Shown piece after piece: positions 3,001-63,000 of a DNA stretch of 64,000 nucleotides (positions are counted from its first letter, which is position 1; each line of letters begins with the position of its first letter). This stretch comes from Escherichia coli. Its GTDB lineage: Bacteria > Pseudomonadota > Gammaproteobacteria > Enterobacterales > Enterobacteriaceae. The stretch lies in the NCBI RefSeq assembly GCF_016026235.1, contig NZ_CP065613.1, one strand, 5' to 3'. The position numbers were made by a program.

Positions 3001-6000
3001 CTGAGGGAAACTTAATACCAGCTTTTGTTCACTGAAGTCGAAATGGCTTGAGGCCTGGGGAATGATTTCGTCAAACGGCACGCAGGCTTCGGCAGGCACC
3101 AGATTGAGGGCCGGAAAGCTTTCAACGCGCACGCCCATCTCTGCCAGTTGCGTCCGGCTAAGGCAAGGCACAAGGGATTCCCCCATCGCTTTGCGCTGTG
3201 CTTCTGTGGCCTCTTTAAATTCCAGTGTGCGGGTTTCCATTCTCTGTTCATTGACGTAAACAGAGACACGATAGATGCCGGGTAACTGCTGTTCCTGGCC
3301 TTTTTCGAACATCGTTAAATCGACATGCTGGCCCACACCCTGAACGTCCTCCAGGAATTTGGGGTTAAACTTTCCGGCATGTGCAGAAAACGTGCTGGCA
3401 ACAGCAACCGCCACCACAGAGATAGAAAAGGAAGAAAAAGTACGTGAAACGGTCTTCCGTGACATTGAGCAATTTCTCCTGAAAAGGTATTAATCAATCA
3501 ACATTTTTAGTCATCATTTCCGCTGACGATCCAAAGTCATTGATAGTGTTATATTTAATCTTCGAAACGCTACCTGCCCCAGCGGGTAATGTAATATTTA
3601 ATGACCCTTTTGCGGGTACCATGCCGGCTTTTTCAATTTCTTTGTCATTCGCAAAAAATTGATTAAAGGTAATATTAAAAACGGTGGGGTTATCGACACG
3701 GATCTGATTACCGCTACGCGTAAATCGCAGTTCGTTTGGCGCGGTTTTTACATCACCCTGTAACCCTGCCGGGCGATAAAACAGTTTGATGCGGGTGCGA
3801 ACAGCAATCTGTAATACATTTTTGTTTTCGCTGTCGTCACTTTTAGACGGAATGGCTTTCACATTAACCCAGTAGACCGATTCGCGATCCTGCGGCAGGC
3901 CAGGGGTGGTATTTACAATACGCAATATATTGTTTTTTCCAGGATCGAGCCTGAACAACGGCGGGGTAATTATAAACGGTGTTTTTTTGCTGCCCGCGGC
4001 ATCATCCACCCAGGACTGGATCAGAAACTCTTCCGTCTTACTTTTATTCTGTACGGTCAGCGAGGCTTCTTTCTTACTGCCATCATAAATCACACGGGTA
4101 GCACTAAGCCCAACGCCCCCCGCCAGAACTGACTGGGAGAGGAACAGAGACAGAGCCAACGCAACAAATTTACTTTTCATCATTCGATCCATGAATTTTG
4201 ACGACTAATGGCGGCAATTACGCCGCCATGGGTAAAACAGACGATTACTCGTAAGACAGGTTGAAATCGACCTGCGCATTGCCGTAACCGGTCGTTACCG
4301 TTGCCAGAGTTGAAACGTAGTTGGCGGTAAAGTAGAGAACCGTCTGGCCTTTACTCAGATCAACACTTGCTTTACCACCGTTAAGAGCGACCAGGGTGTT
4401 GCTGTTATCATAAATACCGATACCAACACCTTTCGCCGCACCGGCTTCAGTACTAACAGAAATCAGATCAGATTGATCTGCATCACCGACACCGCTAAAG
4501 CTCACATTGGCTTTTTTCATCGTAGTGGTATCGCAGTCTTCCAGTTTAATTTCGAAGGGTTTTGCCGGGGATTTATCACCAACCGCAGCAAATACAGATT
4601 TTTGTACCTGACCCAACACAACTTCCTGATTCTGAGAGTCAACGGACAGTACGCAAGGTGAATCCACGATCTCGCCTGTAAATTTAACCGTGCCGTCACC
4701 AGACTCTGCTGCGAATACAGTGCCAGAAGTTAACGCCAGTGCGGTTAAGGCAAAAACGACCTTTTTCATGAAAAACTCCATTTAAAAAATTACATTAAAA
4801 AGAAAATCTTGATGTATCAAAATCGACAACTTTGAAGGAAGGATTATACAATTAAATACGAATAATAAAATTATACGAATAATATATTAATAGCACATCC
4901 AATTTTAAATCTTAAAAAAAATCATTGCGTTACATTTTTACATAAAAAGCTATCGTTTATTTTTAGGAATAAATAAATATAAAATATCAATTAAACAAAA
5001 CAAAAACATTCACCACACAAATAATAAGATAAAATATTTTCATTTTTATTCTTTAAAATGTAATAAAAAAGGAGGATTTCCTCTGAGGGATCCCCAGAAA
5101 ATTTAGTAAACCATTATCATATTGGTATACCGTTGCTGTAGAACTTTCAGCCCTGCGTCAAGTGACAGTGTGTTTAGTATGAGTGGAGAATGTCGAATCA
5201 CATTCTCCGCCAGTTTTAATAACGAGATGACTCGCCTGTGCTTCACTGTATTTGCCTGATATTTATGATGTATCCCTTTGTTTTCCAGGCTGAAACCGCT
5301 TAACCACATAATGATACTGGCTAATGTTGCGATCAGACTCAATACCGTGACCCGCCCGGATGAATGACTGGCACCAAACCGTAGTCCAAATCCCCAGCGA
5401 GGATTTTTTTCATCCCTGAAATTTTGCTCAATTTGCATTCTACGGCTGTATAATTTCATTACCTGTTTTGGCGAGAACTCAGTACTGTTTGTGAAAATAA
5501 ACCATGGTGATTTCCCGGCAGTACGAGCTTTAGCCGTCACCGATGGTCTGGTTGCTCTTTCCTTCGAGCGTTTAAATCTACGACCTTTAGGCTTACTTTT
5601 ATAAAGATAAAAATGCCCTTCATGTTGTGCATTTTTATCTCGACCCAGCAGGCCTTCACCTAAATAAATTGCTGTCGTTGATGCTTTTGTGCCTGAGTCC
5701 GACACCTTTTCCCAGCCATTACCAACATTGTAATAATGATTGCCCAGTACCCGGCAAATATAGGTCCAGCCACGGGAGCGGAGCTGTTGGAACCATCGCC
5801 CCTGAAAACCGGCATCTGTAATAACAATGACATCAGTCCCGGGGGAAAAGCACTCAGCAAGCGATTCCAGAAAACGCTCATGTACATCTGCATTCGCTGT
5901 CTGTGATGATGGAACGACACAACTCATCAACGGTAAAGAACGCCCGTCACATGCCAGGCTTGCCCGCAAAAGCTGAAAACGAGAGGCATGATAAGCACTC

Positions 6001-60000: not shown

Positions 60001-63000
60001 CGCTGAAAAATGGTGGAAACCTCATTTTGCAAATGTCGATTCCCCAACAGTCGATCCACCCGCTTTATTTTGTTTTTAACTGATGCCGTACCGGTTAAAT
60101 GACGCCCGATACTGGTAAGTGTGAGGGAAGCGCCATTTATTACAGCATTAGTTGCGTCAATCAGTGATTTTTGACGGTAAAGATGCAAAGGGGCCAGTAT
60201 GTTGTTAAGGAAATTTTGGCATAATGAACGTGCAGGCATAGTGGTGATCTCCTTGAAATTGTTAGCACAATCAATTAGATCACATCTCACTATGCCTGTC
60301 TTGTTTTCTGGGGATTCCTCAGGGGACTCCCCTGTCTGCTCGCCTAATTACTGAACAATCCACTCCCTCTACATCAATTTACCGCTGGTTGATATTCTGA
60401 AAATGTATTTTCACCGAAATAGCAACCTATAAACAATAAAAATATATAGAAGATATCATTTGTTAATTAACAAGCATTTACGTCTCTTTTTTTCGGATTT
60501 AATTGTGAAATTTTAATCATCATATTCATAAAATCAATTATCCGTAAAAATTTTTCCAGATATGGTTTCTTCCATATTTGACATTTATTAATAATCATCA
60601 TTAGAATCCACGAAAAATAATATATTCATACAAACACAGACATATTTTGAAACGAATGATACATTTTTATGATGAATGCTTAAAACAATATTTAATCGAC
60701 ACCCATCACTGTCATTAATGTAAAGCAACATAGATCACCAATAATACAATGGACAACTCTACCGGCATTGATCGCTGGTCGGAGGCAATAAGGATTTTTA
60801 CATGAACTTGAAGAAGATTTTTTTCAGTGCTGTCACTGTTTCAGTTCTCTGCACATTAACGGGATGTGACTACATTGAAGAAGGCAAGCCAGAAAGTAGT
60901 TTACTGAAACAACAAGAAGAACATAACAATAAAATTGAGCTAATTGAAAAACAACAAGCACAGCTAAAGAGTCAACTGGAAACTATTCAAAAACAACAAA
61001 CTGGCATAATAACCAGTACAAAGACTTTAACTCACGTAATTAAATCCGTTAAAGAACAACAAAACACTTTTATTTTTACCGAGTTTAATCCGGCAAAAAC
61101 GAAGTATTTCATCCTGAACAATGGTTCGGTGGCTTTAGCGGGCCGAGTGTTATCTATTGACGCAACAGAGAATGGCAGTGTTATTCATATTTCACTGGTC
61201 AACTTATTAAGTATACCAATCTCAAACATTGGTTTTAATGCGACATGGGGTGGTGAAAAACCTGTCGATGCCAAAGAGTTTGCCCGGTGGCAACAATTAC
61301 TTTTCAACACATCAATGAAATCCACATTGAAATTATTACCAGGTCAATGGCAAGACATTAATTTGACACTGAAGGGTGTATCGCCGAATAACCTGGGATA
61401 TCTGAAGTTAGCCATCAATATGGAGAATATTCAGTTTGACAACCTTCCCTCTGCTGAAAATCGGCAGAAAAGAAGCAAAAAATAAATGCAGCTTCTGCGC
61501 TTATATCAAGGAATAGAGAACATCATTAATGAACAAAATATTTAAAGTTATCTGGAACCCTGCGACAGGGAATTATACTGTTACCAGCGAAACGGCAAAA
61601 AGCCGTGGTAAGAAATCTGGTCGCAGTAAGCTGTTAATTTCTGCCCTGGTCGCGGGTGGAATGTTTTCGTCGTTTGGGGCATTGGCGAATGCCGGGAATG
61701 ACAACGGTCAGGGTGTTGATTACGGTAGTGGATCAGCTGGCGACGGCTGGGTTGCTATAGGCAAAGGGGCGAAAGCAAATACTTTTATGAACACCAGTGG
61801 TTCCAGTACTGCTGTGGGTTATGAAGCTATAGCTGAAGGCCAATATAGCTCTGCCATCGGTTCAAAAACCCATGCGATTGGTGGTGCATCAATGGCGTTT
61901 GGGGTTAGTGCAATATCAGAAGGCGATAGAAGTATAGCACTGGGTGCCTCTTCGTATTCATTGGGCCAATACTCAATGGCCCTCGGCCGTTATTCAAAAG
62001 CATTGGGTAAATTGTCTATTGCTATGGGGGACTCTTCCAAAGCGGAAGGAGCAAACGCCATTGCGCTGGGAAATGCCACTAAAGCTACTGAGATTATGAG
62101 TATTGCTCTTGGCAACACCGCCAATGCGTCAAAAGCGTATTCAATGGCGCTGGGAGCAAGTAGCGTCGCATCTGAAGAAAACGCGATTGCCCTGGGGCGT
62201 AGCAGTGCAGCTAATGGTACTGACAGCCTCGCATTAGGCAGACTATCCGTCGCCAGCGCAGCAAACGCCATTACGATAGGTGCTGAGAGCAAAGCCGCTG
62301 AAAATGCGACGGCCGTTGGTACCAAAGCGGAGGCCAATGGACTTAATAGTATCGCGTTGGGCTCTGGGGGTATTGCAGATGCCGATAACACGATTGCTCT
62401 GGGCAATCAAAGCCTGGCAGTAGCTGCTGGTGCAATTGCCATCGGTCAGGGGAATAAAGCTGACGGCGCAAATGCTATCGCGCTGGGTAATGGTAGTGTT
62501 ACAGGTGGCGCAAATGCTATTGCTCTTGGACAAGGTAGTTATGCCGGTTTAGAAAATGGCATTGCAATTGGTGGTCAAGCCAGTGCTCAAGGGACAAATT
62601 CCGTTGCTCTGGGTGCGGGTTCTGTAGCGACTGAAGATAATTCCGTCTCTGTGGGTAACACAACAGATCAGCGAAAAATTGTCAATATGGCAGCAGGTGA
62701 TATCAGCACTAGCAGTACTGATGCCATAAATGGATCACAGCTTTATGCTATCAGTAAGTCAGTAGCGGACCGTCTTGGTGGGGGGGCTACCGTCAATGCG
62801 CAAGGTGTCGTTACTGCCCCGAATTACAGACTGAAAAATGGTATTTATGGCAATGTTGGCGATGCTTTAGCGGATCTAAACAATAACACGATACAATGGG
62901 ACTCCGTTAAAAAGGGATATAGTGCGGCACATGGTACAGATGCCACCAGCACCATCACCAACGTTAAAGCCGGCACTATTTCTGCTACCAGTACGGATGC

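Follow-up and report, generated by a model that had tools for sequence, protein, structure and literature searches.

Two copies of the insertion sequence ISEc60 in the core chromosome of an Escherichia coli strain

The two identical elements in the 64,000-nucleotide stretch of Escherichia coli DNA analyzed here (the window; contig NZ_CP065613.1 of assembly GCF_016026235.1) are almost certainly two independent, recent insertions of ISEc60 into the core chromosome, and nothing contradicts that reading. ISEc60 is a known insertion sequence of the IS4 family and not a new type of system. Copy 1 occupies positions 5083..6376 and copy 2 positions 59029..60322, both with the transposase gene on the minus strand; over 1294 bp they show 0 mismatches (100% identity), and the identity ends exactly at both boundaries. 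They form a direct repeat, 53,946 bp from start to start, with 52,652 bp between them. The first-pass annotation had described two identical copies in the same orientation, each with its own 10-bp target duplication, and both points hold. Copy 1 is bracketed by AGGATTTCCT (5073..5082 and 6377..6386) and copy 2 by GGGACTCCCC (59019..59028 and 60323..60332). The related strain EC2641, which lacks the element, matches exactly both 80-mers predicted for the uninterrupted sites, each 10-mer being present once, and the two pairs are therefore true target-site duplications made by insertion; GGGACTCCCC is also single in the empty site of strain FDAARGOS_943. Eight further ISEc60 copies elsewhere have perfect 10-bp duplications, which makes ten intact sites in all, two of them checked against empty sites. 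At all 11 scored sites a G precedes the left duplication, and at 9 of the 11 a C follows the right one; these bases coincide with the terminal G and C of the element itself, so that a duplication of 11 or 12 bp is formally possible from the sequence alone, and it is homology to the CTGA termini of IS10 that favours a length of 10 bp.

Could both copies have arrived, with the intervening ~52.7 kb, as one Tn10-style unit? Two identical IS copies do bracket a segment here, and IS10-type elements form composite transposons, Tn10 being an example. However, the outermost flanks differ (AGGATTTCCT vs GGGACTCCCC), there being a matched 10-bp duplication for each copy and no shared outer duplication, and the would-be passenger segment is ordinary syntenic core chromosome, which runs from yhjX to yibL and which 5,382 of 5,426 complete genomes have. 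The sites are also found empty singly in relatives, with FDAARGOS_943 having copy 1 without copy 2. We rejected a Tn10-like composite transposon, which is wildly improbable on this evidence. The interval contains glyS (16540..18609) and glyQ (18619..19530), both on the minus strand, with coordinates carried over from the annotation of FDAARGOS_943 and checked by translating the genes; glyQS is intact at 16540..19530, as had been proposed. The perfect identity of two 1.3-kb repeats would also fit a collapsed or copied consensus, that is, an assembly or segmental-duplication artefact. Against this, the inverted-repeat termini are the exact limits of the repeat, the flanks of each copy are unique and show a precise 10-bp duplication, and the right junction of site 1 is reproduced independently in FDAARGOS_943, so this explanation was also rejected, as very unlikely. 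ISEc60 copies in other genomes are likewise all 100% identical, and identity between the copies is therefore expected of a recently expanding element.

Two independent insertions also agree with the distribution of the element and of its two sites. Of 5,426 complete E. coli genomes only 14 carry full ISEc60 copies, some of them enteroinvasive O96:H19 strains, and when 100,044 species-representative genomes were scanned for the exact 22-mer of the outside end, none matched. Neither complete window insertion, sought with both flanks, was found in the 5,426 complete E. coli genomes. A 443-aa ORF that extends into the flank had no recorded counterpart, and a search with lpfA1 gave no contig reading lpfA-IS-yhjX, the one hit adjoining ISEc60 being the inverted locus of FDAARGOS_943. 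Over the interval the nearest relative, FDAARGOS_943, shows an identity of 99.92-99.98%, and its site 2 is empty. Because this sister strain shares copy 1, copy 1 is older than copy 2, and copy 2 is specific to the window strain. That the insertions are independent and recent, as the first-pass annotation supposed, is thus borne out by the differing duplications, the empty site 2 and the absence of either full insertion from the complete genomes. The sites can serve as lineage markers, site 1 being common to FDAARGOS_943 and site 2 private to the window strain. The pair marks its genome as one with active ISEc60 expansion, and its value lies in annotation and strain typing.

An ISEc60 assignment calls for at least 95% DNA identity to the ISfinder reference; here the name was assigned by proxy, through identity to RefSeq copies labelled ISEc60 by PGAP, which takes the name from ISfinder. 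Matches of 100% over 1294 bp in RefSeq are annotated "IS4-like element ISEc60 family transposase", and the transposase sequence is that of WP_001111632.1 and its cluster members, which bear the ISEc60 name. Identical annotated copies occur in FDAARGOS_943 and in RMDEC and VL strains, and the O96:H19 EIEC strain CFSAN029787 has them on its chromosome, on pINV and on a plasmid of 47.6 kb. Compared with these annotated copies the element shows no difference, and the two insertion sites alone are new. In the literature searched, ISEc60 is named in two papers, in both of them solely in mobile-element lists. The transposase gene (5103..6293 in copy 1 and 59049..60239 in copy 2, both on the minus strand) encodes 396 amino acids with no internal stops on translation, and was assigned through NCBIfam, Pfam and alignment to the IS10 transposase. 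It scores 360.5 bits against the NCBIfam IS4-family model NF033591 (cutoff 152) and E 1.8e-20 against Pfam DDE_Tnp_1 (PF01609), and its best NCBIfam model is IS4_2. Elements of the IS4 family have a single transposase ORF without a frameshift, a DDE triad and a Y-(2)-R-(3)-E-(6)-K signature (PMC2266710). ISEc60 has one such ORF, in which the catalytic residues D97, D160 and E289 align with D97, D161 and E292 of IS10 and in which the signature (Y282, R285, E289 and K296, within YSRRMQIEQNFRDEK) also aligns with that of IS10, together with terminal inverted repeats and a ~10-bp target duplication. The inside-end repeat of copy 1 (5083..5101, plus strand, CTGAGGGATCCCCAGAAAA) lies on the 3' side of the transposase gene and contains a GATC at 5089..5092; the outside-end repeat (6358..6376, minus strand, CTGAGGAATCCCCAGAAAA) lies on the 5' side, without a GATC. 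The two repeats agree at 18 of 19 positions and both start with CTGAGG.

How closely is ISEc60 related to IS10? The first-pass annotation had called the element IS10-related, which is right but distant: the transposases share 36% identity over 375 amino acids (E 9e-75). The two elements have near-identical termini and a common layout, and the proper name is ISEc60. The IS10 subgroup comprises elements of 1200-1350 bp with 5'-CT ends and, typically, a 9-bp direct repeat (PMC2266710, Table 1). ISEc60 agrees in size (1294 bp) and in its CTGAGG ends; its direct repeat is 10 bp, not 9, at ten of ten intact sites, the tabulated value being typical and not strict. ISEc60 resembles IS10 (IS10R of Tn10, 1329 bp) in having one DDE transposase, in which the YREK signature is present and the catalytic residues align, as well as CT termini and a symmetric target consensus. 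At each end, 12 of the first 13 bp are identical between the two elements, both for the IS10 inside end (CTGAGAGATCCCC), where the match includes the GATC, and for the outside end (CTGATGAATCCCC), and in both elements the GATC is confined to the inside end of the two. The similarity otherwise stops at 36% protein identity, with no significant DNA similarity beyond the tips. The duplication is 10 bp in ISEc60 and 9 bp in IS10, the target is GGGAATTCCC-like instead of GCTNAGC, and the transposase ATG is at position 84 instead of 108.

The sites of ISEc60 insertion are best explained by a preference for a palindromic, hairpin-like target resembling GGGAATTCCC, flanked by G and C and often forming the loop of a GC-stem hairpin, a consensus built on about a dozen sites. 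By a weight matrix trained only on sites from outside the window, site 1 comes 15th and site 2 48th among 61,371 positions, and hairpin folding is stronger in ISEc60 targets than in background sequence (Mann-Whitney p = 3e-4). In the window each target is a small hairpin with a GC stem, situated shortly after the 3' end of a gene: site 1 follows yhjX, which encodes an MFS transporter (6418..7620, minus strand; stop codon 31 bp from the copy 1 duplication), and site 2 follows yibL (58592..58954, plus strand; stop codon 64 bp before the copy 2 duplication). At site 1 the target, the hairpin GGAGGAAATCCTCC with a T-run behind it, resembles the yhjX terminator. The preference recalls that of IS186, an IS4-family element whose target is GGGG(N6-7)CCCC, and of other inserters into GC-stem palindromes or terminators, with a palindrome of a G-run and a C-run and a ~10-bp duplication. 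IS186 nevertheless belongs to a different subgroup, and the spacing in ISEc60 is GGG-AATT-CCC within 10 bp.

Why, then, do both copies lie upstream of adhesin genes? On the inside-end side of copy 1 is lpfA1, encoding the major subunit of a long polar fimbria (4245..4769, minus strand; annotation transferred from EC2641 and translated), whose start codon is 313 bp from the inside end through DNA of 19.5% GC. The first gene downstream of the copy 2 outside end encodes a DUF3251/SadB-YajI-type lipoprotein (60802..61485, plus strand) and starts 469 bp from the duplication (29.5% GC); it is followed by a gene for a YadA-like trimeric autotransporter adhesin (61529..64000, plus strand) that runs past the window end. 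The insertions might have been selected because they alter expression of the lpf and YadA-like adhesin operons, through outward transcription or lost silencing in AT-rich DNA. The upstream intergenic position of both copies fits this idea, as does the outside end of copy 2, which points at the adhesin operon with an outward-facing candidate promoter; the pOUT promoter of IS10 can activate adjacent genes. Yet target preference alone accounts for both sites, and elsewhere ISEc60 adjoins unrelated genes (dnaJ, PTS genes, hok and slyD). Moreover, with two insertions in all the sample is very small, and the end of copy 1 that is turned toward lpfA1 is the inside one. Selection on adhesin expression is unlikely. 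The earlier description of the copies as lying next to AT-rich DNA upstream of adhesin operons stands as to position, but the link to adhesins is unnecessary, since both sites fit ISEc60's own target preference. By that preference, copy 1 would have been placed in the yhjX terminator, upstream of lpfA1, and copy 2 in the small hairpin that follows yibL, ahead of the operon for the lipoprotein and the YadA-like adhesin.

Identical copies in one chromosome are potential substrates for homologous recombination, as the first-pass annotation proposed, and in FDAARGOS_943 this holds for the site 1 copy. That genome has reciprocal chimeric junctions, lpfA1|AGGATTTCCT-IS-GGGAATCCCC|slyX and slyD|GGGAATCCCC-IS-AGGATTTCCT|yhjX, which indicate that the site 1 copy recombined with another ISEc60 copy to give a ~254-kb inversion. 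For the window pair the proposal is an extrapolation, and no rearrangement between the two window copies was observed. As direct repeats of 1.3 kb they could recombine, plausibly to give a tandem duplication of ~54 kb, which would be the viable product; a deletion between them should be lethal because glyQS would be lost.

IS10 transposes by non-replicative cut-and-paste, and by homology, at 36% identity, ISEc60 most likely moves in the same way. The single DDE transposase would bind the near-identical CTGAGG(G/A)ATCCCC ends, excise the element and insert it across staggered cuts 10 bp apart, and gap repair would then produce the 10-bp duplications that are seen at the sites. Control is probably IS10-like as well, with an antisense hairpin RNA over the transposase start. 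A hairpin resembling RNA-OUT spans the transposase start codon (6286..6356 in copy 1 and, in the identical element of copy 2, 60232..60302, both on the plus strand), with a minimum free energy of -33.1 kcal/mol (z = -6.56). Its match to the Rfam RNA-OUT model (RF00240) is full-length but weak, 16.8 bits and so below the gathering score of 41, against 98.8 bits for the IS10 control, and generic, unrelated hairpin families score about as well on it. The model begins 8 nt inside the ATG in ISEc60, and the offset is equal in IS10. No compensatory changes were found in the hairpin among relatives at 82-99% identity; the diverged relatives are frameshifted or truncated pseudogenes. The ISEc60 hairpin may thus work like RNA-OUT without belonging to the RNA-OUT family. 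Dam methylation would probably act as in IS10, by analogy, through the GATC in the inside end and a GATC overlapping a candidate extended -10 element (TGATCTAAT).

Taken jointly, these features would describe an element with a previously undescribed symmetric, G/C-flanked GGGAATTCCC specificity and a 10-bp duplication, steered into hairpin loops on GC stems, for example those of intrinsic terminators, that has conserved the antisense and Dam layout of IS10 at 36% protein identity; the window strain and FDAARGOS_943 would then be an E. coli lineage in early IS expansion, as in Shigella/EIEC. We hold this combined reading to be evenly poised between right and wrong. If it is right, hairpin-loop targeting would lead to repeated landing at gene 3' ends and in operon upstream regions, and re-entry into the same target could build tandem ISEc60 dimers. 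Followed up, the target preference would, together with the IS10-like layout of control, add modestly to what is known of the IS4 family. A consensus promoter scan returned neither the candidate pIN nor the candidate pOUT, which it missed because both rely on extended -10 elements. The TGATCTAAT element overlapping the second Dam GATC lies upstream of the transposase gene, and the candidate outward-facing promoter, TGgCATAAT, is at 6271..6279 in copy 1.

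Did the two copies of ISEc60 in the window arrive together or separately? Copy 1 (5083..6376) and copy 2 (59029..60322), both of 1294 bp, match at all 1294 positions, the match stops precisely at both boundaries, and a repeat finder reports them as a direct pair with a spacing of 53,946 bp. The element has an 18/19 terminal inverted repeat (CTGAGGGATCCCCAGAAAA / CTGAGGAATCCCCAGAAAA); AGGATTTCCT stands on either side of copy 1 and GGGACTCCCC on either side of copy 2. As a test for true duplication, the predicted uninterrupted 80-mers, with one copy of the 10-mer in each, were constructed and sought, and both are present exactly in E. 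coli EC2641, a related strain without the element. The first-pass annotation of two identical copies in the same orientation, each with its own 10-bp duplication, is therefore real, and its interpretation essentially right. A composite transposon was rejected because each copy has a separate duplication and the two sites are independently empty in relatives. Both are routine insertions, and the element already had a name.

The sole long open reading frame of the element (copy 1, 5103..6293, minus strand) encodes a 396-aa transposase that matches NCBIfam NF033591, IS4 family transposase, at 360.5 bits (cutoff 152), and also Pfam DDE_Tnp_1. In 5,426 complete E. coli genomes from RefSeq, sequences matching at 100% bear the annotation "IS4-like element ISEc60 family transposase", and full-length ISEc60 is rare (14 genomes). 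The nearest relative of the window's strain, FDAARGOS_943, has at least 38 copies, and CFSAN029787, an O96:H19 enteroinvasive strain (PMC10470518), carries ISEc60 on its chromosome, pINV and a 47.6-kb plasmid. An identical protein belongs to a 211-member cluster named for ISEc60, with members from E. coli LT-68 and Shigella dysenteriae. In the literature ISEc60 was found in mobile-element lists only, and the exact 22-mer of its outside end (transposase 5′ side) had no match in 100,044 species-representative genomes. Two relatives of 82-85% identity (plasmid NZ_CP060062.1 and NZ_CP171637.1), annotated merely as IS4 family transposase, are frameshifted pseudogenes.

How close is ISEc60 to IS10? 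Compared with IS10 from Tn10 of plasmid R27, its transposase shows 36% identity and 56% similarity over 375 aa (E 9e-75), the catalytic residues D97, D160 and E289 align with D97, D161 and E292 of IS10, and the YREK signature is intact. The transposase-5′ ends are CTGAGGAATCCCC in ISEc60 and CTGATGAATCCCC in IS10, the transposase-3′ ends CTGAGGGATCCCC and CTGAGAGATCCCC, and in both elements GATC is confined, of the two ends, to the inside (3′) end. Size, CT ends and YREK agree with the published table of the IS10 subgroup, although ISEc60 makes a 10-bp duplication rather than the 9 bp listed there (PMC2266710). The description "IS10-related" thus suits the architecture, while the sequence is distant. 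Opposite the start of the transposase gene, the other strand forms a long hairpin at 6286..6356, with a folding energy of -33.1 kcal/mol and z = -6.56. The full length of the Rfam RNA-OUT model aligns there, but the score of 16.8 bits is below the gathering score (41) and roughly what generic hairpin families reach; RNA-OUT scores 98.8 bits in the IS10 control. Both the ISEc60 hairpin and IS10 RNA-OUT start 8 nt inside the ATG. Direct reading of the sequence places a candidate extended -10, TGgCATAAT (6271..6279), 7 nt upstream of the hairpin, and TGATCTAAT, on the sense strand upstream of the ATG, shares bases with a GATC. An IS10-like control layout appears to be conserved in ISEc60, a modest extra of the analysis.

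Over the interval between the copies, FDAARGOS_943 and the window share 99.92-99.98% identity, and site 2 of that strain is empty. At site 1 it has the same IS-yhjX junction as the window, but slyD with GGGAATCCCC stands on the other side of the element; ~254 kb away, in opposite orientation, is the reciprocal junction lpfA1|AGGATTTCCT-IS-GGGAATCCCC|slyX. These two ISEc60 copies with exchanged flanking 10-mers (6030..7323 of locus L003 and 7999..9292 of locus L004, both from NZ_CP065615.1) bear the signature of recombination between two inverted ISEc60 copies, one at the lpfA/yhjX site and one at the slyD/slyX bidirectional terminator, that inverted ~254 kb; this inversion in the sister strain is another modest extra. 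Together with the empty site 2, the junctions indicate that copy 1 was in place before the two strains diverged, that only the window's strain has copy 2, and that ISEc60 copies do recombine in this lineage. The view of the copies as independent, recent insertions agrees with their differing duplications and the privacy of copy 2. Matched duplications are kept at both window copies, so neither joined such an exchange. In GCA_031665585.1 (JARKNL010000002.1, ~1,013,937-1,019,431) there is an ISEc60 tandem dimer, with GGTAAATCCC between the copies, GGAAAATCCC on both outer sides and one differing base, an arrangement that fits either a second insertion event at the target left in place or movement of the pair as one unit. 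The flanking 10-mers of two copies in GCA_031665325.1 (L013 and L015) are mismatched, which suggests further IS-mediated rearrangements there.

The interval, yhjX to yibL, is ordinary core chromosome. As had been noted, the copies bracket glyQS, with glyS (16540..18609) and glyQ (18619..19530) both intact. RecA-dependent exchange takes place between direct repeats; the viable product expected from exchange between copies 1 and 2 would be a ~54-kb tandem duplication, and a deletion would take out glyQS.

Copy 1 is 31 bp past the stop codon of yhjX and stands upstream of lpfA1 at a distance of 313 bp, in DNA of 19.5% GC. Copy 2 comes 64 bp after yibL; the next gene, 469 bp downstream of it, encodes a DUF3251/SadB-type lipoprotein and precedes the gene of a YadA-like adhesin, and GC in that region is 29.5%. 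The AT-rich position upstream of adhesin operons was accurately described. Ten more ISEc60 loci from two other assemblies and three relatives gave eight additional perfect 10-bp duplications. Taken with both sites of the window and the one at slyD/slyX, these fit a palindrome near GGGAATTCCC with G and C at its borders. When a symmetrised weight matrix trained on sites outside the window alone was scored on the reconstructed empty window, site 1 came 15th and site 2 48th among 61,371 positions. The loop of a GC-stem hairpin holds 7 of 10 targets, target folding energies are below background (p = 3e-4), and unrelated genes adjoin other ISEc60 copies; target choice is therefore enough to account for the adhesin neighbourhood. 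This hairpin/palindrome preference is likewise a modest extra. The flanks of the two pseudogene relatives, GGGCCTACCC and GGGATATCCC, agree with the pattern. The site-1 target is a hairpin, GGAGGAAATCCTCC, followed by a T-run, and looks like the yhjX terminator. Copy 1 splits this putative terminator (6377..6420 and 5040..5082), leaving the hairpin half without a T-run on the yhjX side and the T-run on the lpfA1 side; transcription of yhjX may thus continue into the element.

Other repeats lie in the window. Between yiaB and xylB there is an IS1 copy of 768 bp (21898..22665) whose 9-bp duplication is CCATAGCCC; in FDAARGOS_943 this region has deletions as well as IS1 and IS66 elements. The window keeps xylFAB and yiaT-aldB-yiaY, both lost in that strain beside IS1 and IS66. 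The repeat families at 43114..44609 and ~52176..53677, with 71-79% identity, correspond to two pairs of paralogues, yiaV/yiaW and yibH/yibI, and REP/BIME-type palindromic units (GTAGGCCGGATAAGGCGTTTACGCCGCATC...) are intergenic at 35903..35977, 44995..45043 and 56202..56261. The YadA-like trimeric autotransporter gene starts at 61529, extends beyond the window end and contains 255-bp tandem repeats (62908..63981) with 67-95% identity to reference copies.
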